A stretch of 64,000 nt of DNA from Phyllobates terribilis (taxonomy: Eukaryota): NCBI RefSeq assembly GCF_046119375.1, contig NW_027362762.1, forward strand, positions 928,388,001 through 928,452,000, written 5' to 3'. Shown here piece by piece: positions 766 to 32,196 of the stretch. The position numbers and the translations under genes were made by a program. The notes under the pieces are model-generated. The model saw only the letters and a program-made list of their open reading frames with translations. It made no database searches and had not been told where the DNA came from. The first letter of the stretch is position 1. Each line of letters starts with the position of its first letter.

Positions 766-783
766 ATCCTGTTCGTGACGCCA
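766..783 (-). promoter_or_regulatory. Primer binding site, tRNA-Ser(CGA)-type
   Basis: Plus strand ATCCTGTTCGTGACGCCA matches the 18-nt 3' end (with CCA) of a vertebrate tRNA-Ser-CGA isodecoder as recalled; lies 9 nt from the LTR edge. Confidence 0.85.
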
Positions 784-792
784 GGAAAGAGA

Positions 793-2598
793 TGACTAGC
801 CCAGGGGATGGGGATGACTCGGAACCCGGGCCTTTGCGTGGCCTTTGGGGATGTCGCGGTGGTCGGCTCCCGGGCCCGTACCCTGGGTTCACTCTTTAAA
901 AAAAGGGGAATAATAGATTTCTTGGTTTTATGACAGTTCGTGATGCCACCTGTGGCTTCTGGTGAAAATCACCAGCGCTGCGCAGTCCACTGAGGCCGGT
1001 GATATGGCAGCTCGATGGTATAGCTCCCCACAGGTGAGCTAGGCCTCAGGGCAGCGTACGGAATGGGGAATGCAGGACAGGCGAGAGCCAGCCGGGTCAG
1101 AGCAAGAACAGGGACAGACACGATAGTCACTTCAGTACCTTTTACTGATGGAAATTCAGGCACGTCCCGGAGCACTGTAGGGTGAAGGGTGCATGACAGG
1201 ATCCTCCCCAATGAGCGGGTGTATGGCCTCCTGTTACTTGCCTCTGCGTAGTAAGGTTCTGAACTGCCTGGAGCTAGGCCTAACTTTGTCTCTGTCCTGC
1301 GCTGGCTGACCTTGTGGTAGGGCCTTTTCTTGGAATACACGTACCTCAGCTTAAGGGGCCTATGTGTCTCCCGGCTCTGTTACGTATCAGCACTTTAGCG
1401 TTCCTGGGACTTGTAGTTCTCCAGGGATTCCGGTTATGCCTTACTGGGGTGAGCTAGTTAAGCTCCTCTGTCCCCTATGTACTAACTATCCACTCGCCTT
1501 CGGCCTACTCGGGCCCTCACTAGGCTATACACACTAACGGCAGCTTGCCGCGCTTCACCGATCTTATGGCGCCGGCACACCTTAAGCTCTAACTGAGCTA
1601 CAACTCAACTGAGCTCGACTCTGCATTCAGATGTATACTCGCTGAACTCTCCAGAGGAACTGCTGAATCACTGAGCTCCACTGCAGACTGACCTCTCTTT
1701 GGCTCATCTTCTGCAGGAACTCTCTCAACCGACTTGGCTCTACGTCGACTCCAGACTGAACTGCCTGGCTCCACCTTCCCTTTTTATATCCCTAACGGGC
1801 TCCCTTTGCTGGTCTGAGGTGGAAGGTGGAGATGTGTGAATGTTTATGGGGGCCTCTTGTGGAGGAATCCATCAATGCACACTTCTAGGATCTGTGATAC
1901 CAAGCGCAGCTGGGCGTCACAGATACAGGTGGCGACTCCGCTCCATCCGTATCCCCCTGGGATCCACTAAGCCTCCGGGCTTTTCTGACTGAGACGTGAA
2001 GTGACAAAGTCAGATATCGGGGGCCGGTTACCCGTCTTGCAGCAGGAATCCCTCTGGCTAGGCCAGAGTGAAGAATACAGGTGGCGACTCTGCTCCGTCC
2101 GTATTCCCTGGGATCCTTTTGCCTGTGGAGCCTATCTCCTCTGCTCCCCTCCAAGGCCTTCTTAGAACAGGACCCTGACCAGGTAGAGACACTGGTTAAC
2201 TCTGACCCGCTCCTCGTCTCAAGGCCAGAGTACGAGGACCGCAAATCTTCAGCCAGATGCAGACTCTTGCTGGACCCTGACAGAAGACCCGCAATCAAAG
2301 ACCTTGAACTTAAGATGGGCGTAAATTATATATGATACTGTATGTGCTCCCTGTAAGTGGTTCCTCCACCCTCACCCACTACCTGGTTCCCCCTATCTTT
2401 GGTTCCCCCCATCTCCTTTATCCCGGACCGGGGCAGCACCCTGGTGCATTTCGACCCCCTACAGGACAGGAGTGGTGTAGTGTTGAGTGGTGAAGTGGGG
2501 TCCTGAGTGATGCTCCATCCTTACCTGGGAGAGGAGATACCACACCTCTAACTGAGGTGCAGTACCCCTGTGGCGAATGAACCCTCAGGGGCGCCACA
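793..2598 (-). repeat. 5' LTR of element 1 (~1.8 kb)
   Basis: TG...CA ends (TGACTAGC...GGGGCGCCACA); TATA-like GATATAAAA near 1782-1790 and AGTAAA at 1141-1146 on the minus strand; ~40-bp duplicated U3 block at ~1925-1965 and ~2078-2117. Confidence 0.75.
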
Positions 2599-5009: not shown

Positions 5010-6096
5010 AACGCATGTACCTATAACTCTCAGTATGTCCTTAACAATGGTAATGTGATGCTGGGAGTTGTTGTTACCAGCAATTATCAGACTATGGACC
5101 ATACACAGATAAACATTTACATCCAGGTACCTTACAGCTGATGTGTTGTCTCATTGGAGTCATTTTTAACCCTTTCATCTCCATCTCGTCCAGATGCCAT
5201 GATGACTTTTCATAGCCTGACCAGGCCCTCATCCCTAGCAAGTACTCCCGTTGGGGCCTATATAATTATCACCAGTAAAGACCCTGGGACTGCACTATCT
5301 TGTCTCTGTGTTCCTTGCAGTGCCAGCACTCACAGCACTAGAACGCCCTGCACAATCACCACCATCATCCAGTCACGCTGCCCTGAAGCTACACTCCTCC
5401 TGTGGGGAGTCACATCACCTTGCTGCACATACCATCAGCTTCAGCAGACTGCTCCGCACCGGCGGTTACCAATAACCGCAATCCACAGGTGGCTTAGTTG
5501 GACTATATATAACAGAGACAAATAGACTACCCTGGTTTGACCACCCTGGGTCACGGACCGGGTCGCCGCCACGGTGACTACAACCTCCAGCATCTACAGG
5601 CCCGGCTCCGGGTGCCCCCTACGGCCCAGGGGGCGCGTCACTAACTTTTCTCTAAACCATGTCCCAAGTTCACGCTGTCCTCTCTCCATATCCATACTGT
5701 GCCCCTTCTTCACACTATGCCCTGATACTGCCCATCATGCTTCCATCTCCAAACTGTGTCCCTTCCTCACATTGCCCCCCCCCACCACACACACACTATG
5801 ATGGTCACCAAAGCCCTCCACACAGTATTATATCCACCATGGCCCCCATACACAGTATAAAGTCCACCACAGCCCCCATATACAACGCATGTACCTACTG
5901 TATAACTCTCAGTATGTCCTTAACAATGGTAATGTGATGCTGGGAGTTGTTGTTATCAGCAATTATCAGACTATGGACCATACACAGATAAACATTTACA
6001 TCCAGGTACCTTACAGCTGATGTGTTGTCTCATTGGAGTCATTTTTAACCCTTTCATCTCCATCTCGTCCAGATGCCATGATGACTTTTCATAGCC
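5010..6096. repeat. Local duplication: A(5010-5217), B(5217-5885), A'(5884-6096), where B copies 6918-7586
   Basis: Direct sequence identity at an offset of 1701 bp (B) and ~875 bp (A), with a few substitutions and one 5-bp indel. Confidence 0.9.
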
Positions 6097-6340
6097 ACAG
6101 CTCGTCTCTATAAACTTCCCTCTTCTTCGGCCTTCTGTAACACAGTGCACTTAAAAATAAGAGTGTTATTATAATTCCCTATGCATAAAAATATCTGTCC
6201 ATATTGTGCCCTAAATAAGCCTCTTATGTTATATGGCCTCCACATTGTCTTTATGAATCATGGACTATACCGTGGCTGTCTCCTCTCCACTACTTTCCCT
6301 TTCACTCTCTATATCTCCATACTGTCCCCTGCCATGCTAA

Positions 6341-7341
6341 TGTGGCACTCCAGGGGGTCTGGTTGCCACAGTGGTAGTAATACCATGTCTGGGAGCAAAA
6401 CAGGAGTTTCCTGGTCAGGGAACACACTATATGCAACACCTCCTGCTCCAGACCAGAAAAGGGGAGGATCCTGCCCTATATAACAGGATCTGGAGGCGGG
6501 GTTAGTCAGTTTAGTCAGAAACAGGGCTGTAGTCCAGTTGAGGACACTAAGGAGCAAGGAGCTGAGGACTGGAACTTGAAGAGCTCATCCTAGCCGGAGT
6601 AGATACAGAGAACCGGACACCGGAGTCCGAGGCTGTGGGACCCTTCAAGCCCAGCAGCAGATACCGCAAGGCAGGAGATTGCAGGTCTCCTGGCCTACAG
6701 AAGCCCGGAGGCTCAGCCACACGAAAGGACCAGTACCGCCACAGAGGAGCGAGGAATACACGGGATCCGAGTCGCCAGCCATACGGGTGAGCACAGCACG
6801 TCACACTCAGGGACGTGGGCTACAACACGACTATAAGCGGGATAGCCAAAAGAGTACAGTCAGAACGGCAGGCCTACAACTTCACCTGGCCAGGGGAATT
6901 CTAGGATTGCTCCCAGACTGACCAGGCCCTCATCCCTAGCAAGTACTCCCGTTGGGGCCTATATAATTATCACCAGTAAAGACCCTGGGACTGCACTATC
7001 TTGTCTCTGTGTTCCTTGCAGTGCCAGCACTCACAGCACTAGAACGCCCTGCACAATCACCACCATCATCCAGTCACGCTGCCCTGAAGCTACACTCCTC
7101 CTGTGGGGAGTCACATCACCTTGCTGCACATACCATCAGCTTCAGCAGACTGCTCCGCACCGGCGGTTACAAATAACCGCAATCCACAGGTGGCTTAGTT
7201 GGACTATATATAACAGAGACAAATAGACTACCCTGGTTTGACCACCCTGGGTCACGGACCGGGTCGCCGCCACGGTGACTACAACCTCCAGCATCTACAG
7301 GCCCGGCTCCGGGTGCCCCCTACGGCCCAGGGGGCGCGTCA
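6341..7341 (+). mobile_element. Solo Gypsy LTR (1001 bp)
   Basis: TGTGGCAC...GCGCGTCA with 4-bp TSD CTAA (6337-6340 and 7342-7345); TATATAA at 6477-6483; AGTAAA at 6975-6980; homologous to LTR 24861-25870. Confidence 0.93.
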
Positions 7342-8124: not shown

Positions 8125-10032
8125 TCTACTATATAATCGTCTTATCCCGTCTGTCTGTCTGTCCTGGAAATCCCGCGTCGCTCATTGGTCCGGCAGCGGC
8201 CAATCAGCGCCGCGGGATTTCTGAAAAAAGATGGCGGCCGTTAGCGGCTCATTTGGCGGACGGAGGTCAGCGGGGAGATGAGTGGCGCTAGCAGCACAAC
8301 TACCCCGACCGGCGCTGCCTGTGCGGCTCCTTCTGCTGCGAGAAGCCGGGAGATGAGCGGCTGCTCGCAGCACAACTACCCCGACCTCCATGCGGCTAAC
8401 GTCGGAAGATCAGCGGCTTGGCCCGCTGATCTCCCGACAGCAGTGTGAACGGAGGACCGGGGAGCGGCGCCGCCAGTCGGGATGCTTCTGCTGCGAGCAG
8501 CAGCTCATCTCCCGGCTTCTCGCAGCAGAAGGAGCCGCACAGGCAGCTCCGCTCCCCGGTCCTCACTAATAAGGAGCCGCACAAGCAGCGCCGCTCCCGG
8601 GCCCACACTAATACGACGCTGATTGGTCGCGGTGGCCGGCCGCGACCAATCAGCGAGATGGGCGGCAAATTTAAACGCCGCTCTGCTGATTGGTCGCTGT
8701 GGCCAGCCGACCGTGACCAATCAGCGAGATGGGCGGCAAATTTAAACGCCGCTCTGCTGATTGGTCGCGGTGGCCGGCCGCAACCAATCAGCGAGATGAG
8801 CGGCAAATTTAAACACCGCTCTGCTGATTGGTCGCGGTGGCCGGCCGTGACCAATCAGCGAGATGGGCGGCAAATTTAAACGACGCTCTGCTGATTGGTC
8901 GCGGTGGCCGGCCGTGACCAATCAGCGAGATGGGCGGCAAATTTAAACGCCGCTCTGCTGATTGGTCGCGGTGGCCGGCTACCGCGACCAATCAGCGAGA
9001 TGGGCGGCAAATTTAAACGCCGCTCTGCTGATTGGTCACAGCCGGCCACCGCGACCAATGATCGAGATGGGCGGCAAATTTAAACGCCGCTCTGCTGATT
9101 CATCGCGGCCGGCAATCGCGACCAATCAGCGATATCGGCGGCAAATTTAAACGCCGCTCTGCTGATTGGTCGCGGTGGCCGGCCGAGACCAATCAGCGAG
9201 ATGGGCGGCAAATCTAAACGCCGCTCTGCTGATTGGTCGCAGTGGCCGGCCGCGACCAATCAGCGAGATGGGCGGCTAATCTAAACGCCGCTCTACTGAT
9301 TGGTCGCGGCCGCTGGCCGACCGCGACCAATCATCGAGATTGGCGCCAAATGTAAACACCGCTGTGCTGATTGGTCGCGGCCGTCAGCCGCGACCAATCA
9401 TCGATATGGGCGGCAAATTTAAACCCCGCTCTGCTGACTGGTTGCAGTGGCCGGCCGCGACCAATCAGCGATTTTGGTGCCAATTTGAAACACCGCTCTG
9501 CTGATTGGTCGCAACCACCGGCCGTGACCAATCAGCGATATTGGCGCCAAATTTAAACACCGCTCTGCTGATTAGTCGCGGTCTCCGGCCGCGACCAATC
9601 AGCAATATTGGCGCCAAATTTAAACCTCGCTCTGCTGATTAGTCGCAACCACCGGCCGTGACCAATCAGCGATATTGGCGCCAAATTTAAACACCGCTCT
9701 GCTCATTGGTCGCGGTTACCGGTCACGAATAACCAGCATTATTGGCGACAAATTTAAACACCGCTCTGCTGATTAGTCGCGGCCGTGACCAATCACCATT
9801 ATTGGCGCCAAATTGAAATAAAGCTCTGCTGATTGGTCGCGACCGCCGGCCGCAACCAATCAGCATTATTGCCGCCAAATTTAAACCCCGCTCCGCTGAT
9901 TGGTCGCGTTCGCTGGCCGCGACCAATCAGCATTATTGGCGCCAAATTTAAACTCCGCTCTGCTGATTGCGCCCGGTCGGCCGCATACCTATTCTAGAAT
10001 ACCCGATGCATTAGAATCGGGCCACCATCTAG
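8125..10032 (+). mobile_element. Non-autonomous Helitron (1908 bp)
   Basis: A|TC 5' end; 3' hairpin CCCGAT-8 nt-ATCGGG (10002-10021) then CTAG|T; no TSD; (GTCT)n near the 5' end. Confidence 0.9.
8618..9970. repeat. 67-bp palindromic satellite array inside the Helitron (~20 units)
   Basis: Unit CGCGACCAATCAGC-gagatgggcggcaaatttaaacgccgctct-GCTGATTGGTCGCG-gtggccggc, with a 14-bp internal inverted repeat. Confidence 0.95.
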
Positions 10033-10038
10033 TATATA

Positions 10039-11239
10039 TGACGCGCCCCCTGGGACATATTCCTTTTTGAGGGGAATACCCGGCACCGGATCAGATGGGG
10101 GGTTGTAGTCTCCGAGCGGCTGTGACCCGGTCCCGTGCCCAGGGCGTCAAGCTCAGTGTTATGTGGCAGCTTTACAGATGTTACTAAAGTTCTTTTGTGT
10201 CGACTACGCCACCCGTTGTGATGCGGACACTGTGGCCGCCGCTGCTGCAGGGTCCGCTGAGGCTGATGGTGGGTGCGCAGCTTGGTGGGATAACCCCCAA
10301 CGGGAGGGGTATAGCCTCAGAGGGGACAGGCGCAGAGGATGGGGGTTGTGGTGGTGCGATGCAGCCGGCAATGAAGACAGACTCGGGTTGTGCAGTTAAG
10401 GGTGTTTACTTACTGCTGATGTTGTACTGGTCACTCCAGCTGCTAGTGACCACCCGAGCCGTGCTGCGTCCACCAGGTCCTGGATCTGGCCAACCCCCAA
10501 ACAAGTCCAGAGCGTGGCCCTGAGCTCTCCCTCTGTCCTTTCTTCAGCCGTCCCCACCAGTGATTCACCTAGGTCCAGCTCCCTCGGGCCTTCTTTTGGG
10601 ACACCCTTGGCCCTGGGTTCCCTGACCCTTCATGTGGTGTGCCTTCGGGGTGAATGTGGTGGGTGACCGTGACAGACACTGCCCACGGTCTCCGGTCTCT
10701 GGCTGGGGAATGTCTTTGCCCCCACCAGCTTGGGTTCCGGTACCCTCTTGCTGACTCCTCACCCGGTGCTCTAATTTGGGTTCTTGGGTCCCTTCAGTCT
10801 TCCCCCTCTGGGTCTTTCTCTGCTCCACTCTCTCTCTCTCCAGGGCTGCTGTTTCCTTCTCTCTCCTCTCCAACTGACTTGTTCTCAGCGTCTGACCCTG
10901 ATCTAAGTTGGTGCCCTCCTTATATATCCCTCTATGTGTGAGCTCAGGTGACCAGCACCCAATGAGCTCCTATCACTACCCAGACTGCTCCCCCTATCTG
11001 CCCCTACACTACATGGGATGTACCACCCCCCTCCCACTCCAGCCAGGAACAGGCTCGGTTGTACCTGCACATTTCTAAGTGGGAGTACCGTCGGCCTGCT
11101 CCTCTGGAATGGGATGTATGTAGTGCATGCAGTCTATCTGAGCTCAGTTCCACACTCCTTCCTTACCCGGGAGTGGAATATCACACCTCTGGGTTGAGGT
11201 GCAATACCCCTGTAGCAGCCGAATCCTCAGGGTGCTACA
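10039..11239 (-). repeat. 3' LTR of the non-autonomous element
   Basis: TG...CA ends; AGTAAA poly(A)-type signal at 10405-10410 and TATATAA at 10920-10926 (minus strand). Confidence 0.95.
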
Positions 11240-11753: not shown

Positions 11754-13163
11754 TCAGACCCGTCCGGGTCCTCTTGTGATGGGCGCGGTGGTGTTAGCAC
11801 CCGGGTTGCCCGGGCCTTGCGGCCAGGCCTGGGGTATCTGGAAGGTGAAGGGCACCGTAAGAACGGCGGCGCCCTGGGCTACCTGGCCTTGCGGCCAGGC
11901 CGGAGGCTCCGCGGAGGTAGGGGGCGCTGTTGGTGATGCGGCGCCCGGGGGTACTAGGCCTTGCGACCAGGCTGGTGGTATTTCCTGCTTTGTCACGCTC
12001 CGGGTCGAGGCGCGTGACGTCACAGGGGTCGCTGCGGCGGCTTCCGGTCGGGGCCTAGTCCATTGCGGTGACGTGGCGGCTACGGGCACAGCAGGGGGAC
12101 TTTCGGGCTCTGCGACGGGGAGCTGGGGCAGGTGGACGGTTTCTCGGCTTGGGGTATAGGCGTCCCCTTTACCTGCCTCCATGCGTTCGGCTCCCTTCTC
12201 GGCGCCGTCTCCGGCCTTGGGTCCTCCCGCGCCATCCTCAGAGGCGGTCTGCTTCCTCTTCCAGGGTAGCGTGCTCCGTTGACTGGTCTCAGCTTGCTGG
12301 GTCATCTCCCGGCTCCACTCCGCCAGTATCTCGCGCTGTACCCGGGCCATCCTCCTTGCGAGGCCCTCCAGGGCAGTTTGTGCACACTCCCGGTCTCGGG
12401 GGAGCTGCGCTAGGATCTCCGCTAGACCTAGCGGGGTTGTGGACTCTAGCAGGCTCCTGACCATCGGGTCGGTGCTGCTCTGCTCGGCTTCCGGCAGGCT
12501 CCTGGCCAGCGGGCCGGTGCTGCTCTGCCCTCCTTCCTCGGTCTCTAGCAGACTCCTGGCCAGCGGGCCGGTGCTGTTCTGCTTTCTTTCCATCTCCGGG
12601 TGAGCTTCTCCGCTACTCCTTGTTAGACCTCTTGCCTCCGGGTGCGCTCGCTCCAGACTCCTCCAAGCGACACCCATCTTTTCTCTTCTCTTTCGTCTCC
12701 TCCCACTTCGAGGGCGGTCCCGGGGCAACTCGGTGACTGTCAGCTCCAGGGGGAGTTCTTTCACGCTGACAGACACCTCCAGCATCACAGTCTCTGTTGG
12801 TGGGGGCGGTTTCCACTTTTGGCGCCATTTTCTGTCCCTGCCCACGATGGGATGTGGCCTCTTGCCCTCCTTTGGCACGCCCATAATGGCGTCCGCTGCT
12901 CTTCCAAGGCGGGAAATCTGCGGTTTTGGCGGGAAGCGTCGCCCAGTGGCGGGAAACTCTGCAGATGGCGGGAACAAGCTGGAAATGGCGGACAATCGGC
13001 GGGAAACGACTGGTGATGGAGTCCGATGGCGTGGACCCTCCGGAACCGGCAGGAGTCTTCTTTCTGAGGTAAACTTGCACTTTTCTTCAGGCACGCAGTA
13101 CCCGGTTGTTGTGGGCACGTAATCCTGCCGACTACGCCAAAGTTGACGCGCCCCCTGGGACAT
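11754..13163 (-). CDS. 469-aa ORF of unknown function (R/P/A-rich, internal repeats, short coiled-coil-like stretch)
   Basis: ORF track; the only long ORF in the element's sense direction. The ATG lies in U5 and the frame reads through the PBS; the first internal Met is at ~12884. Confidence 0.45.
   Translation of the reverse strand: MSQGARQLWRSRQDYVPTTTGYCVPEEKCKFTSERRLLPVPEGPRHRTPSPVVSRRLSAISSLFPPSAEFPATGRRFPPKPQISRLGRAADAIMGVPKEGKRPHPIVGRDRKWRQKWKPPPPTETVMLEVSVSVKELPLELTVTELPRDRPRSGRRRKRREKMGVAWRSLERAHPEARGLTRSSGEAHPEMERKQNSTGPLARSLLETEEGGQSSTGPLARSLPEAEQSSTDPMVRSLLESTTPLGLAEILAQLPRDRECAQTALEGLARRMARVQREILAEWSREMTQQAETSQRSTLPWKRKQTASEDGAGGPKAGDGAEKGAERMEAGKGDAYTPSRETVHLPQLPVAEPESPPAVPVAATSPQWTRPRPEAAAATPVTSRASTRSVTKQEIPPAWSQGLVPPGAASPTAPPTSAEPPAWPQGQVAQGAAVLTVPFTFQIPQAWPQGPGNPGANTTAPITRGPGRV
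13122..13139 (-). promoter_or_regulatory. Primer binding site, tRNA-Ser(AGA/TGA)-type
   Basis: Plus strand ATCCTGCCGACTACGCCA matches the recalled 3' end of vertebrate tRNA-Ser-AGA plus CCA; lies 4 nt from the LTR. Confidence 0.9.
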
Positions 13164-14344
13164 ATTCCTTTTTGAGGGGAATACCCGGCACCGGATCAGA
13201 TGGGGGGTTGTAGTCTCCGAGCGGCTGTGACCCGGTCCCGTGCCCAGGGCGTCAAGCTCAGTGTTATGTGGCAGCTTTACAGATGTTACTAAAGTTCTTT
13301 TGTGTCGACTACGCCACCCGTTGTGATGCGGACACTGTGGCCGCCGCTGCTGCAGGGTCCGCTGAGGCTGATGGTGGGTGCGCAGCTTGGTGGGATAACC
13401 CCCAACGGGAGGGGTATAGCCTCAGAGGGGACAGGCGCAGAGGATGGGGGTTGTGGTGGTGCGATGCAGCCGGCAATGAAGACAGACTCGGGTTGTGCAG
13501 TTAAGGGTGTTTACTTACTGCTGATGTTGTACTGGTCACTCCAGCTGCTAGTGACCACCCGAGCCGTGCTGCGTCCACCAGGTCCTGGATCCGGCCAACC
13601 CCCAAACAAGTCCAGAGCGTGGCCCTGAGCTCTCCCTCTGTCCTTTCTTCAGCCGTCCCCACCAGTGATTCACCTAGGTCCAGCTCCCTCGGGCCTTCTT
13701 TTGGGACACCCTTGGCCCTGGGTTCCCTGACCCTTCATGTGGTGTGCCTTCGGGGTGAATGTGGTGGGTGACCGTGACAGACACTGCCCACGGTCTCCGG
13801 TCTCTGGCTGGGGAATGTCTTTGCCCCCACCAGCTTGGGTTCCGGTACCCTCTTGCTGACTCCTCACCCGGTGCTCTAATTTGGGTTCTTGGGTCCCTTC
13901 AGTCTTCCCCCTCTGGGTCTTTCTCTGCTCCACTCTCTCTCTCTCCAGGGCTGCTGTTTCCTTCTCTCTCCTCTCCAACTGACTTGTTCTCAGCGTCTGA
14001 CCCTGATCTAAGTTGGTGCCCTCCTTATATATCCCTCTATGTGTGAGCTCAGGTGACCAGCACCCAATGAGCTCCTATCACTACCCAGACTGCTCCCCCT
14101 ATCTGCCCCTACACTACATGGGATGTACCACCCCCCTCCCACTCCAGCCAGGAACAGGCTCGGTTGTACCTGCACATTTCTAAGTGGGAGTACCGTCGGC
14201 CTGCTCCTCTGGAATGGGATGTATGTAGTGCATGCAGTCTATCTGAGCTCAGTTCCACACTCCTTCCTTACCCGGGAGTGGAATATCACACCTCTGGGTT
14301 GAGGTGCAATACCCCTGTAGCAGCCGAATCCTCAGGGTGCTACA
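13144..14344 (-). repeat. 5' LTR of the non-autonomous element
   Basis: Near-identical to 10039-11239 (one T/C difference noticed, at 10487 vs 13592); TATATAA at 14025-14031. Confidence 0.95.
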
Positions 14345-15286
14345 TATACATATTCACCTAATCCAGGCTCACCATCCTCACAGTCTCTATCTCATCTTCT
14401 ATCTTGTGTAACAGTGGACGCAGGCTGCACGATGCAGTGATGTCATCCATCTCGTCCAATGTCCCCTGTGTGGTGCCAGCCTCCAACAGGCTGCAAGTCC
14501 GAAGTAGCCTTTGGCCTGCCGGAGTAACCAGTGGAGCAGAGAGTTGGCTAAAGCTCCTCTGTCCCTGTCCTGGGCAGCGATCACATTTTCAATTATATTC
14601 GGAAATTAGGGAGGTTATATTGGCTTGGGTGCAGGTAGAGAGAGTGGTAAGTGATGTTAGTTCCAGGGGATCAGTGGCAGTGGAGATTGTAAAAGTGACA
14701 TTAAGTACAGTATTTTGTGGATTATAACACGCAATGTCTTATAGTTCGAATGTATCTGGCTGTTGCTGTGGGGAGAGGGCGGCTGTGGAGGAGCGGGTCA
14801 CAGGAGGCAGGTGCAGGGTCACAGGAGGAAGGATCCGGTGCTGGGGCTAACACATGTGCTCTCTATTAATGAATATGCACTGCTCCCCACACCCATAATC
14901 CCACCCACCTCTCTGCACTGAAGACCGTGCCAAGATATGTGTGGGACTATGGGCGTGGGGAGCAGTGAATATTCATTTTCTTTAATAGTGGGTACACGTG
15001 TTGGCCGCAGCCGCCAGCTTCCTGCAACGGCTACGTGATCACGTGTGTCCGCAATTAAGGAAAATAAATATTTACTGCTCCCCACGCCCATAGTCTCGGG
15101 CGTGGGGAGCAGTGAATATTCCGGCAGCTGTCGTCGGTGCGTGGGGGCGCATGGCATTGACGTCATACGCTGCGCTGCTTACAAGGTGAAGTCAGTAGAC
15201 GGCATCAGAAGAGGACGCCTCGCTGCGAGGGAGCGGAGGGAAGGTGAGTAGAATCGTTTATTCTTTTATTTGAGATGGGGGACCTA

Positions 15287-16916
15287 CAGTACAGACCAAA
15301 AGTTTGGACACACCTTCTCATTTAAAGATTTTTCTGTATTTTCATGACTATGAAAATTATACATTCACACTGAAGGCATCAAAACTATGAATTAACACAT
15401 GTGGAATTATATACTTAACAAAAAAGTGTGAAACAACTGAAAATATGTCTTATATTCTAGGTTCTTCAAAGTAGCCACCTTTTACTTTGATGACTGCTTT
15501 GCACGCTCTTGGCATTCTCTTGATGAGCTTCAAGAGGTAGTCACCGGAAATGGTCTTCCAACAATCTTGAAGGAGTTCCCAGAGATGCTTAGCACTTGTT
15601 GGCCCTTTTGCCTTCACTCTGCGGTCCAGCTCACCCCAAACCATCTCGATTGGGTTCAGGTCTGGTGACTGTGGAGGCCAGGTCATCTGGTGTAGCACCC
15701 CATCACTCTGCTTCTTGGTCAAATAGCCCTTACACAGCCTGGAGGTGTGTTTGGGGTCATTGTCCTGTTGAAAAATAAATGATGGTCCAACTAAACGCAA
15801 ACCGGATGGAATAGCATGCCGCTGCAAGATGCTGTGGTAGTTATGCAGGTTCGGTATGCCTGCAATTTTGAATAAATCCCCAACAGTGTCACCAGCAAAG
15901 CACCCCCACACCATCACACCTCCTCCTCCATGCTTCACGGTGGGAACCAGGCATGTAGAGTCCATCCGTTCACCTTTTCTGCATTGCACAAAGACACGGT
16001 GGTTGGAACCAAAGATCTGAAATTTGGACTCATCAGACCAAAGCACAGATTTCCACTGGTCTAATGTCCATTCCTTGTGTTCATTAGCCCAAACAAGTCT
16101 CTTCTGCTTGTTGCCTGTCCTTAGCAGTGGTTTCCTAGCAGCTATTTTACCATGAAGGCCTGCTGCACAAAGTCTCCTCTTAACAGTTGTTGTAGAGATG
16201 TGTCTGCTGCTAAAACTCTGTGTGGCATTGACCTGGTCTCTAATCGGAGCTGCTGTTAACCTGCGATTTCTGAGGCTGGTGACTCGGATAAACTTATCCT
16301 CAGAAGCAGAGGTGACTCTTGGTCTTCCTTTCCTGGGGCGGTCCTCATGTGAGCCAGTTTCTTTGTAGCGCTTGATGGTTTTTGCAACTGCACTTGGGGA
16401 CACTTTCAAAGTTTGCCCAATTTTTCGGACTGACTGACCTTCATTTCTTAAAGTAATGATGGCCACTTGTTTTTCTTTACTTGGCTGCTTTTTTCTTGCC
16501 ATAATACAAATTCTAGCAGTCTATTCAGTATGAATATCAGCTGTGTATCCACCTGACTTCTGCACAACACAACTGATGGTCCCAACCCCATTTATAAGGC
16601 AAGAAATCCCACTTATTAAACCTGACAGGGCACACCTGTGAAGTGAAAACCATTTCCGGTGACTACCTCTTGAAGCTCATCAAGAGAATGCCAAGAGTGT
16701 GCAAAGCAGTCATCAAAGCAAAAGGTGGCTACTTTGAAGAACCTAGAATATAAGGCATATTTTCAGTTGTTTCACACTTTTTTGTTAAGTATATAATTCC
16801 ACATGTGTTAATTCATAGTTTTGATGCCTTCAGTGTGAATGTACAATTTTCATAGTCATGAAAATACAGAAAAATCTTTAAATGAGAAGGTGTGTCCAAA
16901 CTTTTGGTCTGTACTG
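15287..16916 (-). mobile_element. Tc1/mariner transposon with DD38E (Intruder-type) spacing, full length (1630 bp)
   Basis: TA TSDs; 268-bp TIRs (15287-15554 and 16649-16916) with ~4 mismatches; intact transposase. Confidence 0.95.
15450..16502 (-). CDS. Intact transposase, 350 aa, DD38E catalytic triad
   Basis: GRPR linker, [18 protein letters not shown] and [11 protein letters not shown] motifs; 38 residues counted between the second D and the E. Confidence 0.95.
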   Translation of the reverse strand: MARKKQPSKEKQVAIITLRNEGQSVRKIGQTLKVSPSAVAKTIKRYKETGSHEDRPRKGRPRVTSASEDKFIRVTSLRNRRLTAAPIRDQVNATQSFSSRHISTTTVKRRLCAAGLHGKIAARKPLLRTGNKQKRLVWANEHKEWTLDQWKSVLWSDESKFQIFGSNHRVFVQCRKGERMDSTCLVPTVKHGGGGVMVWGCFAGDTVGDLFKIAGIPNLHNYHSILQRHAIPSGLRLVGPSFIFQQDNDPKHTSRLCKGYLTKKQSDGVLHQMTWPPQSPDLNPIEMVWGELDRRVKAKGPTSAKHLWELLQDCWKTISGDYLLKLIKRMPRACKAVIKVKGGYFEEPRI

Positions 16917-17144
16917 TATATACCAGGATGGGGGGACATATATACCAGAAAGGGAGCCATATATACCAGGATGAGGATCATATATACCAGGATGGGGATC
17001 ATATACTGTATACCAGGATGGGGATCATATATACCAGAATGGGGGCCATATATACCAGGATGGGGATCATATACTGTATACCAGGATGGGGATCATATAT
17101 ACCAGGATGGGGGCCATATATACCAGGATGAGGATTATATATAA
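16917..17144. repeat. 22-bp minisatellite (TATACCAGGATGGGG..CATA), resuming at 19632-19770 after the Helitron
   Basis: Tandem units visible directly; the array is split by the Helitron insertion. Confidence 0.9.
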
Positions 17145-24860: not shown

Positions 24861-25870
24861 TAACGCGCCCCCTGGGCCGTGTGTGTAGGGGAATACCCGG
24901 AGTCGGGTCTCTGTGTAATACTGGGGGTTGTAGTCTCCGTGGCGGCGACCCGGTCCCGTGGCTCAGGGTGGTCAAACCAGTGGCGGGTCTGTTTCTTTGG
25001 TTTTGTAATATTTAAATGTCCGACTACGCCACCCGTGGATTGCGGTCACTGAGAACCGCGGCTGCGGGGCAGACCGCTGAGGCTGATGCTGTGTGCGCAG
25101 CAGAGGGTAGTATAACTCCCCATGAGAGGAGTATAGCCTCAGGGCAGCGTCGGTAGATGGTGAGGGTTGTGGTGCATGGGCGCTGCAGAAATGACTCAGA
25201 GTCTGTGCAGTGCAGTTCAGGGTCTTTACTGTTGATAATGAAGAAGGCCCTGCCGGGAGTACTGGCTAACATTAGAGGCCTGGTCAGTCTGTGAGCGAAC
25301 AAGAGTCCCCCTGGCCAGGTGGAGGTATAGGCCTTCCCGTCTGACCGCACTCTTCCTGGCTACCCTGCTGTAGTCGTGTAGTAGCCCACGTCCCTGAGTG
25401 TACCGTGTGGTGCTCACCCATATGGCTGGTGACTTGGGGCCTTTGGTGCCTTCCGCTCCTCGATGGCGGTGCTGGTCCCTTGCGTGTGACTGAGCCTCTG
25501 GGCTTTCTATGGCCAGAGGACCTGAAATCCCCTGCCAGGTGGTTTCTGCTGCTGGGTGTAGATATCCCCACAGCCTCGGACTCCGGTGTCCGGTTCTCTG
25601 CGTCTTCTGCCAGGACGAGTTCGGCTCCAGTCCCTGGTCTTCAGCTCCTGGCTCCTACAGAGCTCCTTGCCGCTGCTCTGTCCCTTTCCCTGGAACTAGA
25701 CTTCTCTGCTAACCCGCCCCAGATCCAGTATATAAAGGGCAGGTTCCTCCCCTCCCTGGACTGGGGCAGGAGGCGTGGCTTACAATAATGCTCCTGACCA
25801 GGAAAACCCATGCTCGCTCTCAGACATGGTATTTCTACCACTGTGGCAACCAGACCCCTGGGGTGCCACA
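24861..25870 (-). repeat. 3' LTR (1010 bp)
   Basis: Ends GGGTGCCACA next to the PPT; left terminus reads TA instead of TG; AGTAAA at 25225-25230; TATA-like TTTATATA near 25730. Confidence 0.92.
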
Positions 25871-26325: not shown

Positions 26326-27708
26326 TTAGATTCTCCAGCGAGCGGGCATCTGACCTCTAGTGCTCCTGGTGGACCTACATAACACACTATCTGGTGGTGT
26401 TCTTTCTGGGTCCCCTGTTTCTACCCCTTGTGTAGTGGGCTCACTAGTGTCTGCACTACAGGTGTTTGGAGCAGTTTTGGGTAGGCTGGGCAGCTTTCTG
26501 CGTACTCTTTGGCTTACTACGGGCACGGCAGGCTCACTACTAGCAGAGGGTTGATTGTCCTGGGCTGCTGGTATGGAATCTTCTGCCTCCAGGGCCGGTT
26601 GCTCTCCCAACTCTACTTGCTCTTCTGTACGCCCATGAGGGGCTGGCTGGAGAAAGGTAAGGACGGGTACCACAATAGCGTTGTTAATTTGTGTCCAGGA
26701 CCGGGGAAATTCTCCGAGTACTGTACTGACCATTTCTTCCCTTTCCTCTGCGGGTTGAGGGCTATCTTGGTCTTCATCAGTGCTTTGCAGCTGCTCGGGA
26801 CACTTCTTCAGGTGGTCTCTGGAGACAGTGGCTGTGGTCTCTCCTCCATCCTTACTGATAACGTAGACTTTCGGATTTTCATGGCTTGAGGGCAGTACTG
26901 TGTATGGTTCTTTCTCCCACTGGTCATCCAACTTATGGAGCCGCCTCTTCCTCTTCAAGACCTGCTCTCCAGGTGCCAGGGGAACAGCGGGAGCATGCTG
27001 GTTGTAAGTCCTCTCTTGCCTTTCTCTTGCTTGACTTCTCTCAACACTCTCCTGCACTTTCCGGTACTGCTGCTGCCATTCTGTATCCCAGTCTGCCTCT
27101 GGCGAGGTGTCCTCGGGGGTCAGGACTCCCATATCCAGGTCAATAGGCAGCTTACCAGGTCTTTCTCTCATTAGGTAAGCCGGGGTGCAGTTGGTGGAAT
27201 TTACTGGGCTGTGGTTATACAAATCCACCAGATCAGGCAGTTTTTCGGGCCACAGACTGCGTTCTTCCAAGGGCAACATTTTCAGCAAGTCTATCACCAC
27301 CTGGTTCATCTTCTCGCACAATCCGTTGGTTTGGGGGTGATAGGGCGTTGTCCTTATCCTTTTGCAGCCATACAGGTTGCAGAACTCCTGGAAGACCTCC
27401 GCTTCGAAGGCTGGACCTTGGTCAGTCAACACTTGCTCCGGATACCCGTGTGGACGGCAGAAGTGCTGCTGGAAGGCTCTAGCTGCGGTCTGAGCTGTTA
27501 AGTCCTTGACAGGGACCACTACCAGGAACCGGGAGTAATGGTCTTCGATGGTGAGGGCGTAGACGCACCCGGACCTACTTGGAGCCAGCTTCACATGGTC
27601 CAGGCTACCAGTTCTAGTGGCTGCTTGGTGATGATGGACTGCAGGGGAGTCTTCTGGCTGGCACGGTCCTTCCTTCTCAGGTTGCACGGGCCGCAGTCTC
27701 TGCACCAT
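26326..27708 (-). pseudogene. Integrase core and C-terminus (frameshifted from upstream pol at ~27606)
   Basis: LDHVKL, IEDHYSRF, TDQGPAFE and HPQTNGLCEKMN motifs; C-terminal GEQVL region. Confidence 0.92.
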
Positions 27709-29608
27709 CTCTCAATGGCCCCTTTCATGCCTACCCAGAAGAACCGTTCACGCAACAGGAACTCCAACTTCTTCCATCCAAAGTGCCCTGCTCCGTCGTG
27801 GTATGCCTTCAGGACCATAGCCGCGTCTCGTCTCGGGACCACTACCTGCCAGGTCAGCTCATGTGTCCGGGAGTTGACAATTCTCCGGCACAGCTTCCCC
27901 TTGTAGAGAAACAGTTTACTCTTCTCCTTCCAGAGCTGTTTGGTTTCTTCCGGAGCGTCTGGGTCAAGGCGGGCATCAGCCTGTGTCAGCATCTCTTTTA
28001 CCGGGTGGACAGCTGGGTCACTGTCCTGCGTCTCCGCCCAGCTGTGGTGGGGTAAGGGATTGAACGTGGCAGAGCGCCTGTCCCTTACACGGTGGGAATA
28101 CTGGGTAATCCCATGACGGTGGAACGCAGGGAGTTCAATCTCTTCCAGTTCTTCTGGATCTTCCCCTCCGTCCAGCAAGTTTGGCATTCTGGACAGGGCA
28201 TCTGCGTTGGCATTTGTGCGTCCCGCCCGGTATTTGATAGTGAACTCATAGTTGGATAGGCGGGCCATCCATCTCTGCTCCAGAGCACCAAGTCTTGCAG
28301 TGTCAAGGTGTGTCAACGGGTTGTTGTCCGTGTACACGGTGAACTTGGAAGAGGCAAGGTAATGTTTAAAGCGCTCTGTCACTGCCCATACCACCGCGAG
28401 GAACTCTAGCTTGAAGGAGCTGTAATTTTCAGGATTCCTTTCTGTGGGCTGGAGCTTCCTGCTGGCATAAGCGATTACCCGTTCTCTGCCCTGTTGGATC
28501 TGGAACAGCACCGCCCCTAGCCCGATGTTGCTCGCGTCTGTGTGGAGAATAAAAGGCTGGCCGTAATCAGGGTACGCCAGGATTTCATCCCCTGTGAGGG
28601 CCATCTTCAGCCGGCGGAAAGACTCATTCTCCAGCTGGTCCCATTTGAAGGGTGGCTTCTGGTTTTTGGCCTTCCTGGACTGGCCTATCAGGAGATCCTG
28701 CATAGGAGCGGCCATTTTGGTGAACCCGGAGATGAATCTTCGGTAGTAGCCTACCAACCCGAGGAACTGCCGCACTTCCTTTATGATGGAGGGTCTTGGC
28801 CAGTCCTTAATCACTGTGATCTTATCAGGATCTGGAGCTACTCCGTCAGCACTCACCACGTGTCCCAGGTACTGTACCTTCGGCTTCAGTAGATGACACT
28901 TGGAGGGTTTCACCTTTAGGCCGTAGCCTGCCAGGGCGTCAAACACTTCTGCCAGATGTCTCAGATGGTCCTCGTATGTTTTGGAATACACAATGACATC
29001 GTCCAGGTATAGCAGGACCGTCTCGAAATTCCAGTGCCCCAGGCAGCACTCCATCAACCGCTGGAAGGTTCCTGGCGCGTTGCAGAGCCCGAACGGCATA
29101 CAGTTGAATTCGCTGAGACCCATCGGGGTGGTGAACGCGGTCTTCTTCTTGTCGGCCTCTGCTACAGGAACCTGCCAGTACCCGCTAGTAAGATCCAAAG
29201 TGGAGAAGAAGTTAGCAGACTTTAATGCAGCTAAAGATTCCTCTATCCTAGGTAACGGGACGCATCTTTGTGTGTGATACGGTTGACCTTCCTGTAGTCT
29301 ACACACATTCTCATGGTGCCATCTTTCTTTTTCACAAGAACTAGTGGAGCTGCCCAGGGGCTACCGCTGTCCCTGATCACCCCAGCCTCCTTCATTTCTC
29401 GCAACATTCCCTTGGCATTCTGATAGTGTGCAGGGGGTACAGGTCGGTATCTTTCCTTTATGGGTGGATGGTCTCCCGTGGGGATGTGGTGTTCTACCCA
29501 CTTTACTTGCCCAAAGTCTAGCGGGTGTTTGCTAAAAACTCTTTCGTACTCCTGAATCACCCGGTAGACTCCCTGTTTGTGGTGTGGGGGAGTGGAGTCG
29601 GTGCCCAC
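27591..29608 (-). pseudogene. Reverse transcriptase, RNase H and integrase zinc finger (1-bp deletion at ~29268)
   Basis: [47 protein letters not shown] and H..GH...C..C motifs. Confidence 0.95.
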
Positions 29609-29623
29609 ATGCAGTTTCTGACA

Positions 29624-30460
29624 TCAGTTCTCCATTTGTTTCTTGGAGCCGTAACCCTCCTCTGGTTGAGATGGAGGCAAGGGTTCCACGGCCTTTATAG
29701 AATTTTGGTTAACGGTGAACAATTTGGCTAGAGTGGCATACCGGGGCAAGTATACTTCTCTTTCCCCAATATTTAGGATGCGGACGGGCACCCTCCCATG
29801 GCGTACATCGACCACCCCCCGTGCTGTCAAAATGGTGGGCCTACTGTCTGAGTAGATGGGTTCTACCATGGCTTGGTAGTCCCTTCCTCTTAACCCGATT
29901 GCAGTCTGGCACCAGATCATCATCTCACTTTTTGGGGGCATGGCGATAGGGAACGGGTAACTCATCCTAACGCTACCAATCTCACCACCAGACAGTTCTA
30001 CCTGTTGCCTTTTCATCAGGGCTCTGATCTCTTTTAGTAGGACACGCTGCTGGCTGGAGCTGGCGTTCACCGCAACCTGCTGTAATATGAGAATTATCTC
30101 TGCAAGACAATTTTCATTAACATTAGTACCCAAGGTTATCTTAGGGTGGCTTTCACGACGGTCAATGTCCACAATAATCAGTCCTTGCGCTGGTAGTTCA
30201 ACTTTACCAAATTTGATGGTCACCTCCTTGAATCCTACCTGCGGTACGGGCTGACCATTGCTTGCGATGATGCTAAAATCGTCGTCTGGGTAGTGGGTAA
30301 TATCCGAGTCATTCCAGTACCGCTTAAAAAGCACATAGGGGATGGTGGTTACCTGTGACCCGGTGTCCAGTAGTGCACTCATAGGAATGCCATCCAGCAC
30401 CACAGCCAAGACCAGTCGCCCCCTACGTACTTATCACGCCAGCTCGATGGGCCTGATGGT
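29624..30460 (-). pseudogene. Aspartic protease region of pol; nonsense codon at 29624-29626
   Basis: ALLDTGSQVT active site; the TGA is in frame with the downstream RT ORF. Confidence 0.92.
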
Positions 30461-30461
30461 C

Positions 30462-31446
30462 TTATGCCTGGGGGGTTGGCCCTCTGCCCCAGGTTGGGCC
30501 CGTTTAAATAACAGTACCTTGCCATATGTCCTGGTTGGTTGCAGCGGCGGCAGATGGGTTGTCCGTCCTCGTCGTAGCGGTTGCTGGGTCTTCCTCTGGA
30601 CGATGGGATCCTCCTCTGTTGGCGCCAAGGGACGTCCTCCGGACTGGAAGCCAGCTGGATCTTTCCTGGAGGGGACACCTGTAAAGACTGCACAGTTCTG
30701 GTTAGCGCGGCAACGCTTTTGGTCAACTCTTGGACCTGATGGTGCAGGGCTGCAGCCGGGGCTTTGTCCAAAGCCTGTGCATCAGCTCCCACATGCTCTG
30801 CAGACAAGGGCGCCGCCTCCTGGTGATAGGTGATAGCAGGGCGCCTGTGGGTTACAGCACCACCTGGTGCCGGTTCTCGGAGCACCTGGATGGCCCTGTC
30901 TTTGAACTGCGCAAAGTCCAATTCAGGGTTCTGCAAGGCCATTACCCGCAACTGGGTTCGGTGGGCGCTGGACTGTAGACCCTCAATGAACTGTTCAGTC
31001 AACAGCTTATCCTCATTCCGCACGCTGTCAGGGTCTGCCTGCTTAATGGCTCTCAGGGCATCCTGCAAATTCAAAGCATAGTCCCGTATACTGTCTTGTG
31101 CCCGCTGTTTGCATCCATAATATTTTAGTTTGATCTCTGCTGAGGTGCGGGTATCAAAAGTGTCCTTTAGATGGGCCAGTATTTCCTTTACAGTCCCCTT
31201 TTCCCTGGCTGACCAGGACTTCACTTCTCTTTGGGCAGCTCCGATTAACTGGCCTGTCAGGATGCTCACTTTTTGTTCCTCGGACAGGGGGTATAATTTG
31301 AATAGGTTATACAGTCTTTCTTTAAAGTCGCTCAGGGTATGCGACTCCCCTGAGTACTGGGGCAACCATGCCGCTCCGGGGATATACGGCATCGTGAACG
31401 GCATCACTGCGGCAGCAGCCGCGCTGGCGGTGGGAGCTTCCTCCAT
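30462..31446 (-). CDS. Gag with CCHC zinc knuckle
   Basis: CRRCNQPGHMARYC knuckle. The ORF track runs to 30379; the natural stop is inferred at 30462-30464 after removing one base from the G run at 30470-30475. Confidence 0.88.
30502..30508 (-). promoter_or_regulatory. -1 ribosomal frameshift slippery site T TTA AAC
   Basis: X XXY YYZ heptamer in the gag frame just after the zinc knuckle, at the gag/pol overlap. Confidence 0.75.
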
Positions 31447-31768
31447 TCCTGGTGTCTTCCTCCCCCCTCGTTAACCGTGGCTTACCTTCCGTTGCTTCTT
31501 CTCCGTAAGCCGCGGCTCCGCAGGCGATCGTCGGGGTCGAGGACCTTGTGTCGCGCACTGGTGACGTCGGCGTCCGCTGGGCTCCTTCCAGGACCTTGCG
31601 CAGCGTCAGTACGTAAGGCGGGGCTTTGGCTCTCGCGCGCTTTTGGCGTCCACGCCCCTCTTCTTCCCGCGCGGCGTCCCAAAAATGGCGCCCAATGGCG
31701 GGAAAATGGCTGCGGATGGCGGGAAAACGGCTGCGGATGGCGGGAAGCTTCACCACGGTATGTATCAC
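31322..31768 (-). CDS. Leader ORF ('ORF0', 148 aa) between the PBS and gag, overlapping the gag start
   Basis: ORF track; motifs RKVL...CGAAAYGEE are echoed in the element 1 leader, and FPAIGRHF is echoed in the 469-aa ORF. Confidence 0.4.
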   Translation of the reverse strand: MIHTVVKLPAIRSRFPAIRSHFPAIGRHFWDAAREEEGRGRQKRARAKAPPYVLTLRKVLEGAQRTPTSPVRDTRSSTPTIACGAAAYGEEATEGKPRLTRGEEDTRNGGSSHRQRGCCRSDAVHDAVYPRSGMVAPVLRGVAYPERL

Positions 31769-31812: not shown

Positions 31813-31830
31813 ATCCTGCCGACTACGCCA
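31813..31830 (-). promoter_or_regulatory. Primer binding site, tRNA-Ser(AGA/TGA)-type
   Basis: ATCCTGCCGACTACGCCA, identical to 13122-13139, followed by the same AAGT spacer. Confidence 0.9.
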
Positions 31831-31834
31831 AAGT

Positions 31835-32196
31835 TGACACGCCCCCTGGGCCGTGTGTGTAGGGGAATACCCGGAGCCGGGTCTCTGTGTAATACTGGGG
31901 GTTGTAGTCTCCGTGGCGGCGACCCGATCCCGAGGCTCAGGGTGGTCAAACCAGTGGCGGATCTGTTTCTTTGGTTTTGTAATATTTAAATGTCTGACTG
32001 TGCCTCCCGTGGATTGCGGTCACTGAGAACCGCCGCTGCGGGGCAGACCGCTGAGGCTGATGTGTGCGCAGCAGAGGGTAGTACAACTCCCCACGGGAGG
32101 AGTATAGCCTCAGGGCAGCGTCGGTAGATGGTGAGGGTTGTGGTGCGTGGGCGCAGCAAAAATGACTCAGAGTCCGTGCAGTGCAGTTCAGGGTCT
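31835..32196 (-). repeat. Truncated 5' LTR (essentially U5 only)
   Basis: Matches 24861-25225 with ~19 differences counted by eye; homology stops abruptly at 32196. Confidence 0.9.

Follow-up and report, generated by a model that had tools for sequence, protein, structure and literature searches.

A covarying predicted pseudoknot next to a copy of the primer binding site in the U5 region of a frog Gypsy clade, with a possible role in docking the primer tRNA

Several long terminal repeats (LTRs) in the genome of Phyllobates terribilis carry segments that can pair as RNA stems, which raises the question of what structure is encoded there and what it could do for the elements that carry it. The window analysed here, a stretch of 64,000 nt at positions 928388001-928452000, sits in a genome of 10.6 Gb. 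A preliminary description of this DNA had assigned the stems to four LTR families; the four LTRs belong to subfamilies within one tRNA-Ser-primed Gypsy clade and are not independent lineages. The host element has gag, protease, reverse transcriptase (RT)-RNase H and integrase between LTRs, with its primer binding site (PBS) placed after the 5' LTR, which makes it a Ty3/Gypsy LTR retrotransposon, and the polymerase of element 4 has its nearest named relatives in poison frogs and toads, followed by fishes and invertebrates. The end of a tRNA-Ser(CGA) gene in locus L295 is the complement of the element 1 PBS; the second PBS type is here labelled AGA-type. Element 3 (11754-13421, minus strand) is a young, pol-less element with LTRs that are 99.9% identical and a 555-codon open frame without a Pfam match. 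Together with a Tc1-like transposon (15285-16918), it lies between two arrays of a 67-nt palindromic repeat (8550-10030 and 17100-18900) that have opposite orientations.

The paired segments belong to a module of about 120 nt, whose parts are listed in Table 1. In sense order, the P1 5' arm is followed by the P2 hairpin with its 8-nt loop, by a C/A-rich stretch with GCTGC and by the P1 3' arm; then come a linker ending in GCAGC, the P4 hairpin, a 3-nt joint, the PK1 arm and a short internal copy of the PBS. An A-rich linker, a region here called domain II, the LTR end and the true PBS complete the arrangement. PK1 is formed by seven loop bases of P2 that pair with the seven bases adjoining the PBS copy on its 5' side, with no spacer in between, and it occurs in three sequence variants. 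The placement in U5 given earlier holds for all copies, each of which lies 60-230 nt 3' of an AGTAAA hexamer and 5' of the LTR end. If this hexamer is, as its position and conservation suggest, the polyadenylation signal, the module would be confined to the 5' leader of the genomic RNA.

Table 1. Positions of the module, its copies and related features in the window (two-sided changes in P1, P2 and P4 refer to 38 subfamily rows)
Feature	Position	Strand	Remarks
Element 1 5' LTR, tRNA-Ser(CGA)-primed subfamily	793..1921	-	
Element 1 TATA	1783-1788	-	Putative role, from position and conservation
Element 1 AGTAAA, candidate polyadenylation signal	1141-1146	-	Putative role, from position and conservation
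P1 outer stem, 5' arm	1042..1049	-	Partner 990-997; 6/8 pairs with two-sided changes
P1 outer stem, 3' arm	990..997	-	Partner 1042-1049
P2 inner hairpin, bears the pseudoknot loop	1021..1041	-	Arms 1036-1041 and 1021-1026; 3/5 pairs with two-sided changes
PK1 5' strand, inside the P2 loop	1028..1034	-	Partner 949-955; 99.6% paired; two pairs with two-sided changes
PK2 5' strand GCTGC, candidate second pseudoknot	1007..1011	-	Partner 977-981; 98.9% paired, no two-sided change
PK2 3' strand GCAGC (candidate)	977..981	-	
P4 variable hairpin	959..975	-	5/6 pairs with two-sided changes
PK1 3' arm	949..955	-	Adjoins the PBS copy on its 5' side
Internal PBS copy, 13 nt	936..948	-	One change here; complementary to the tRNA-Ser(CGA) acceptor end
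Domain II, conserved multi-stem region lying between copy and LTR end	793..891	-	Split anti-PBS motif in loop; from alignment, by eye
True 18-nt PBS for tRNA-Ser(CGA)	766..783	-	
Element 2 module (solo LTR 6339-7340)	7084..7201	+	PK1 7100-7106 with 7184-7190; copy 7191-7201 decayed; PK2 3' strand altered
Local duplicate of element 2 module	5383..5500	+	
Element 3 3' LTR module	10201..10320	-	PK1 10298-10304 with 10212-10218, doubly compensated variant; copy 10201-10211
Element 3 5' LTR module and domain II	13122..13425	-	Copy 13306-13316; true PBS 13122-13139
Element 4 3' LTR module	25021..25142	-	PK1 loop 25120-25126 altered; copy 25021-25031
Element 4 5' LTR remnant module	31813..32113	-	Intact PK1 32091-32097 with 32006-32012; copy decayed; true PBS 31813-31830
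Fragmented coding region of element 4, with PNMA-like gag, protease, RT-RNase H, integrase	26326..31470	-	Ty3/Gypsy order

A profile search over 819 kb gave 126 matches, which were reduced to 36 non-redundant rows and, with two window copies, made up an alignment (A2) of 38 subfamily rows. The eight arms of the outer stem described before are exact (990-997/1042-1049, 10257-10264/10313-10320, 25077-25084/25135-25142 and 7084-7091/7138-7145), the inner hairpins and the small neighbouring hairpins are present, and the covariation first seen in a few LTRs is borne out across these 38 non-redundant rows. In P1, P2, P4 and the two crossing helices, 97.4% of the cells are paired, and 16 of the 31 pairs show two-sided changes, a number that none of 500 shuffles reached; when the register was slid, only 32-59% of the cells paired. 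By one covariation measure, the count of further pair types, there was no excess over the shuffles. Because shuffles ignore relatedness, column pairs were also ranked by corrected mutual information, and here a PK1 pair came first among 8,813 column pairs. Among well-paired columns, the top eight are all pairs of P4, P1, PK1 or P2, with non-pairing lineage markers also ranking high, and the columns most strongly linked to primer type form a P2 pair. PK2 (GCTGC:GCAGC) is nearly invariant and is for this reason unproven.

G-U cells outnumber A-C cells by 30 to 5 and recurrent G-U types outnumber A-C types by 8 to 1, which points to pairing in sense-strand RNA; a structure in the antisense strand or in minus-strand DNA was considered and is disfavoured by the same excess. 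The z-scores of single-sequence folding of the sense strand, by a program that cannot model pseudoknots, are weak (-3.0 to +0.3). As judged from the alignment, helices P1, P2, P4 and PK1 are shown to covary and the module is a real, selected RNA structure; that the RNA folds in this way in cells is what we infer from it.

The preliminary description recognized the stems but overlooked PK1, the candidate PK2 and the way in which the PBS copy varies together with the true PBS. In its place, it had proposed a 9-bp ACGCTGCCC:GGGTGGCGT helix, in which the PBS copy closes a multibranch fold. This helix is 78.1% paired, compared with 77.9% in shuffled alignments, a level reached by 213 of 500 shuffles, and it contains three pairs that do not form in 14, 23 and 25 of the 38 rows. 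It is the minimum-energy fold only in the copy at 25 kb, where two loop changes break the pseudoknot. The proposed link between RNA fold and PBS copy is thus upheld, but not the closure through the copy: PK1 abuts the copy and leaves it free.

A self-cleaving activity had also been suggested. HDV-like ribozymes have a nested double pseudoknot, a 3-bp P3 and a catalytic C in the joint after P4. The frog module has strands in a similar order, namely an outer stem, two crossing helices (PK2 as a candidate), a variable P4, a short joint and a closing long-range helix; this order (P1, PK1 5' strand, PK2, P1', linker, P4, 3-nt joint, PK1 3' strand) resembles that of HDV, with PK1 covarying, PK2 conserved without two-sided change and an extra hairpin enclosing the PK1 strand. 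It differs in that the 5' strand of the long-range helix lies within a hairpin loop and in that P3 and an invariant catalytic C are lacking. A 3-bp P3 is possible in at most 3 of the 38 rows in any of three registers, and the joint between P4 and PK1 (alignment columns 127-129) reads A/variable/variable, with C in 9 of 38 rows at one column only. In the Rfam comparison that had been proposed, the module had no match at E<=10, to a ribozyme or otherwise, and no ribozyme model matched in window positions 1-34000 or in eight distant loci introduced below. The hammerhead core consists of CUGANGA and GAAA; CUGANGA occurs in 0 of 38 rows, and a hammerhead of the retrozyme kind was rejected on this count and on the lack of an Rfam match. 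A ribozyme, HDV-like or of a new type, that cuts read-through transcripts past the polyadenylation site of the 3' LTR would be in keeping with the invariant G/C-rich nucleotides of the module and has precedents inside LTRs, since the accessible part of PMC7761336 describes type III hammerheads in the LTRs of plant retrozymes, which are mobilised by Gypsy elements. These (PMC7761336) share with the frog module a conserved structured RNA within an LTR; the frog module, however, lacks the hammerhead core, and its clade includes elements with gag and pol. A cut at this place would also part R from the PBS in the genomic RNA and would leave the copy unexplained, and we consider self-cleavage highly improbable.

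The feature that can be tied to function is the copy that PK1 abuts. The copy corresponds to the first 9-13 nt of the true PBS and matches the acceptor end of the tRNA; in the tRNA-Ser gene of L295, NCCA and the acceptor strand together come to 11 nt. The match between copy and PBS spans 11-12 nt in 39 of the 43 AGA-type 5' LTRs and 9-14 nt in 29 of the 33 CGA-type ones. The two types agree in all 51 local 5' LTRs, and a genome-wide count gave 38,314 AGA/AGA and 4,288 CGA/CGA cases against 1 and 4 discordant ones (0 in reversed-pattern controls), where the spacing windows of the discordant searches differed slightly from that of a concordant search. These concordant LTRs represent few evolutionary events and not thousands: a tree built from the fold without the copy has five changes of primer type, of which at least two are forced by strong branches, and recombination might inflate this count. 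Each cycle renews the true PBS from the tRNA, while the copy is inherited like any other sequence, and their agreement therefore points to selection. As a separate observation on the true PBS, it runs approximately 27-54 nt into the tRNA-Ser, instead of 18, in 11 of 12 loci (L288-L299) that were fetched by a tRNA-end pattern, suggesting that plus-strand synthesis ran beyond its usual stop, which we take to be m1A58. There are at most 197 such extended sites, tRNA genes being counted in.

The copy also leaves traces of its own in the genome. There are 155 sites at which the post-copy linker and domain II come after an 18-nt PBS. Among the first 30 of these that were inspected, 28 are preceded by a normal LTR end, and 24 of the 28 alignable junctions join no more than 1 nt off register. 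Thirteen junctions repeat their own domain II at >=97% identity, and 8 of 28 join a domain II that is less than 90% identical and therefore belongs to another subfamily. These fossil junctions imply that the copy is at times where the plus strand anneals, and that this happens between co-packaged RNAs as well; what the 155 junctions show is the use of homology at the DNA level and not tRNA binding. Two further loci (L450 and L452) are CGA-type/AGA-type recombinants, the joint being a short stretch over which the PBS start matches the LTR end of the other family.

Junctions between subfamilies mean that mixed dimers occurred, and the module could accordingly be looked upon as a dimerisation or packaging signal, either through kissing of the PK1 loop and arm between two RNAs or through two bound tRNAs that bridge a dimer, as proposed for Ty3 (PMC11381356 and PMC4974528, in the parts available). 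A loop-arm helix of 7-8 bp is possible in trans, and the 8 of 28 junctions that join different subfamilies fit such a role. However, the loop is not self-complementary, a contact in trans does not need the arm to abut the copy, and deletion of the Ty3 PBS did not block packaging according to the same partial sources (PMC11381356, PMC4974528). We regard this role as unlikely.

A full PBS directly after the PK1 arm was found three times. In the 5' LTR of one of these elements (L453), the sequence jumps from U3 into the P2 3' arm, so that R and the PK1 loop are gone, and an in-register 18-mer stands in place of the copy, with domain II and then the true PBS coming after it; the 3' LTR has the normal form, and the element is bordered by a 4-bp target duplication. 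Priming at the copy, yielding a short strong-stop DNA, would account for both anomalies together, as expected of such an event, and deletion plus gene conversion could be an alternative for this single case. For the other two (L454 and L455), which are without domain II, no partner LTR was found within 10 kb. The rarity of copy-primed cases is no measure of the true rate, because such products may fail to integrate.

The copy is thus a replication hazard, yet it is kept, tracks the primer and always abuts a helix. This bears on whether LTR end and PBS were duplicated long ago and the module is a neutral relic of that event, its stems being retained through shared descent. Such duplications do arise here and enter both LTRs (L470/L471 and L479/L480), and the PK1 arm resembles an LTR terminus in having a CA close to its end. 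A relic would nevertheless not be expected to have four helices with two-sided changes beside freely varying linkers, to follow primer switches, to persist while causing replication errors or to recur in the same layout with unrelated sequence, and we judge this explanation extremely improbable. In the two pairs of LTRs just named, the duplicated domain II is present in both LTRs, suggesting that priming in the next round used the downstream one of two full PBSs.

The recurrence of the layout comes from distant Gypsy relatives. Among 80 metagenome loci, 54 with sufficient upstream DNA were screened, and a recognisable PBS was present in 24. Eight of the 24 have a copy of 9-12 nt located 63-203 nt upstream, two of them with one or two wobble changes; of the remainder, 1 has a 6-nt match, 2 are truncated and 13 are without a copy. 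Each copy fits its own PBS, which is of Ser, Leu or Lys type. A strict descriptor, requiring that a hairpin loop form 7 bp with the bases preceding TGG, was passed by 32 of 36 frog rows and 4 of 8 distant copies, compared with 0 of 8 true PBSs and 67 of 7,737 other TGG sites (0.9%). As for the failures, L245 does have the complement over 8 bp and its hairpin is weak, a single bulge or mismatch occurs in each of L232 and L261, and L211 is truncated. The differences between the PK1 helices of L233, L240 and L245 are compensatory. No copy was found in 88 further loci or in 30 Lys- or Leu-primed frog loci. A sequence profile of the frog module gave no match in the 80 metagenome loci (best score, 4.9 bits), and the distant cases therefore have the layout and not the sequence in common. 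The 79 matches of a pattern scan of viral contigs were motif-only throughout (<=12.6 bits), and a generic scan for repeat plus descriptor was swamped by satellites. On a quick RT tree, copy-bearing loci stand at three separate places, a distribution for which a single origin with losses and convergence are both possible. Many prokaryote genome bins (L340-L417) contain eukaryotic Gypsy elements, probably through contamination from a host or another source.

Also of note, 31 of the 68 frog LTR rows have a GCCAYAYRGG-like motif in R, at a distance of 160-360 nt upstream of the module. In the distant, Lys-primed L232, L233, L240, L245 and L261, it forms the loop of a compensated hairpin just 5' of the pseudoknot; it is possibly a shared protein-binding or tRNA-end-mimic motif.

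The reading that we favour, with about even confidence, is that this pseudoknotted leader module would dock the acceptor end of the primer tRNA on PK1 and hold it there without normally priming from it. The pseudoknot predicted for the 5' leader of the genomic RNA would end precisely at a short second PBS. The tRNA would invade this copy by its free NCCA end, opening the acceptor stem only, and its last base could stack on PK1, so that an uncharged 3' end would be favoured and extension hindered. The docked tRNA might be held for packaging or later hand-off and so serve as a primer supply, and docking might be coupled to a halt of ribosome scanning. For an unmodified tRNA-Ser(CGA) end on the copy, the modelled duplex is worth -15.5 to -23.4 kcal/mol against about 9 kcal/mol for opening the acceptor stem, and docking of such a tRNA would thus be energetically favoured. 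In folding models of 39 rows, the openness of the copy did not exceed that of the true PBS (19 of 39 rows; means, 0.30 and 0.32), which counts against docking.

Scanning is a matter on which the AUG content of the leader bears. AUG depletion is deepest between polyadenylation signal and PBS (11 versus 67 expected and 9 versus 34) and extends upstream into R (77 versus 146 expected), counts to be read with the relatedness of the rows and the uncertainty of some TATA calls in mind; the four window elements have 3, 2, 4 and 0 AUGs versus 10-14. Depletion over R and U5 is consistent with, and not decisive for, scanning through the module, and a bound tRNA might stall it. The peak of the depletion, along with a multi-pseudoknot fold in a leader of about 1 kb, would also suit an internal ribosome entry site (IRES) or a block to 5'-3' exonucleases just past the polyadenylation site, with no role for a tRNA. 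However, AUG is scarce upstream in R as well, as cap scanning predicts, Rfam gave no IRES or xrRNA match, and neither role explains why the copy tracks the primer, which makes both very unlikely.

The main rival to tRNA docking is a switch within one RNA, in which the copy and the split anti-PBS motif of domain II pair with each other, freeing the true PBS, while the pseudoknot does no more than position or stabilise this helix and no second tRNA binds. The copy could then follow the primer through its pairing with the anti-PBS motif in the same RNA. By eye, the motif in the domain II loop does vary with the primer, being GACTAC in most AGA-type and GTGAC or GCGAC in most CGA-type rows, and the copy is flanked by short anti-PBS stretches in the distant L232, L233, L245 and L212. 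The two halves of the motif are, however, wrongly ordered for one helix with the copy, the AGA-type subfamilies L034, L291 and L297 keep the copy without the motif, predicted partners of the copy are inconsistent over 39 rows, and the stop of the copy at the acceptor-stem boundary is left unexplained. We therefore hold the switch to be possible, if rather doubtful. Domain II (793-891 and its equivalents) has an outer stem of its own that is compensated and whose arms are swapped in element-1-type subfamilies, and its 5' strand could alternatively pair with the sequence directly 3' of the true PBS.

Docking of the primer tRNA would touch on two open questions that have been studied chiefly in yeast Ty elements and retroviruses, namely, how an uncharged primer is obtained from a mostly charged tRNA pool and by what means a single RNA is allotted to translation or to packaging. 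A bolder extension, by analogy, is that the module might be a eukaryotic T-box-like leader, which captures the uncharged primer by its 3' end, locks it on the pseudoknot and in this way loads the primer and also moves the RNA over from translation into packaging, in at least three separate Gypsy lineages with Ser, Leu and Lys primers; we put this forward tentatively and give it only a small chance of being right. Either way, the module is compact, its helices are backed by covariation, it exists in natural primer-switch variants and in tens of thousands of copies, tRNA capture by it is testable in vitro, and it would be a structured-RNA family new to Rfam. Furthermore, the fossil junctions record strand-transfer errors and mixed dimers between subfamilies and reveal one route by which LTRs grow, through capture of a PBS. 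Our literature search found no duplicated acceptor-end PBS and no U5 pseudoknot in animal Gypsy elements; annotation in repeat databases, subscription journals or supplements is possible. The "PBS-like" sequence of PMC4580426 is, from the part of that paper available, an ordinary PBS.

The closest parallels are found in yeast. In the available parts of PMC4974528, the 10-nt PBS of Ty1 is described as not being what packages the primer, this being the task of extra tRNA-binding sites, and a pseudoknot near the 5' end of Ty1 RNA is reported to be required for the initiation of reverse transcription (PMC4974528, PMC11381356). In both Ty1 and Ty3, the partners of the extra segments are the T arm and the D arm of the primer tRNA itself (PMC4974528, PMC11381356). 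The frog module shares with these elements an LTR-retrotransposon RNA with more than one tRNA-complementary segment; in contrast to what these sources describe, its second site duplicates the acceptor-end site, is part of U5 in both LTRs and borders directly on a pseudoknot helix. Because the acceptor-end site is repeated, a second tRNA or sequential binding would be needed.

In the T-box, according to the accessible text of PMC7583486, the tRNA end stacks on helix A1, a geometry that senses an uncharged 3' end. The likeness to the T-box discriminator is one of analogy, in that the frog copy offers a UGGN able to pair with the tRNA NCCA beside a helix on which it could stack. In the T-box, 4 nt are paired and a specifier reads the anticodon (PMC7583486), whereas the 9-13 nt of the frog copy would open the acceptor stem, and the frog module has no terminator. 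By eye, no serine codon that tracks primer type was seen in alignment A2, and the T-box family model had no Rfam match in window positions 1-34000 or in the eight distant loci. By these comparisons, membership in the T-box family fails, and the function of the frog module would be that of the extra segments by which Ty1 and Ty3 bind tRNA, with the difference that the acceptor-end site itself is repeated.
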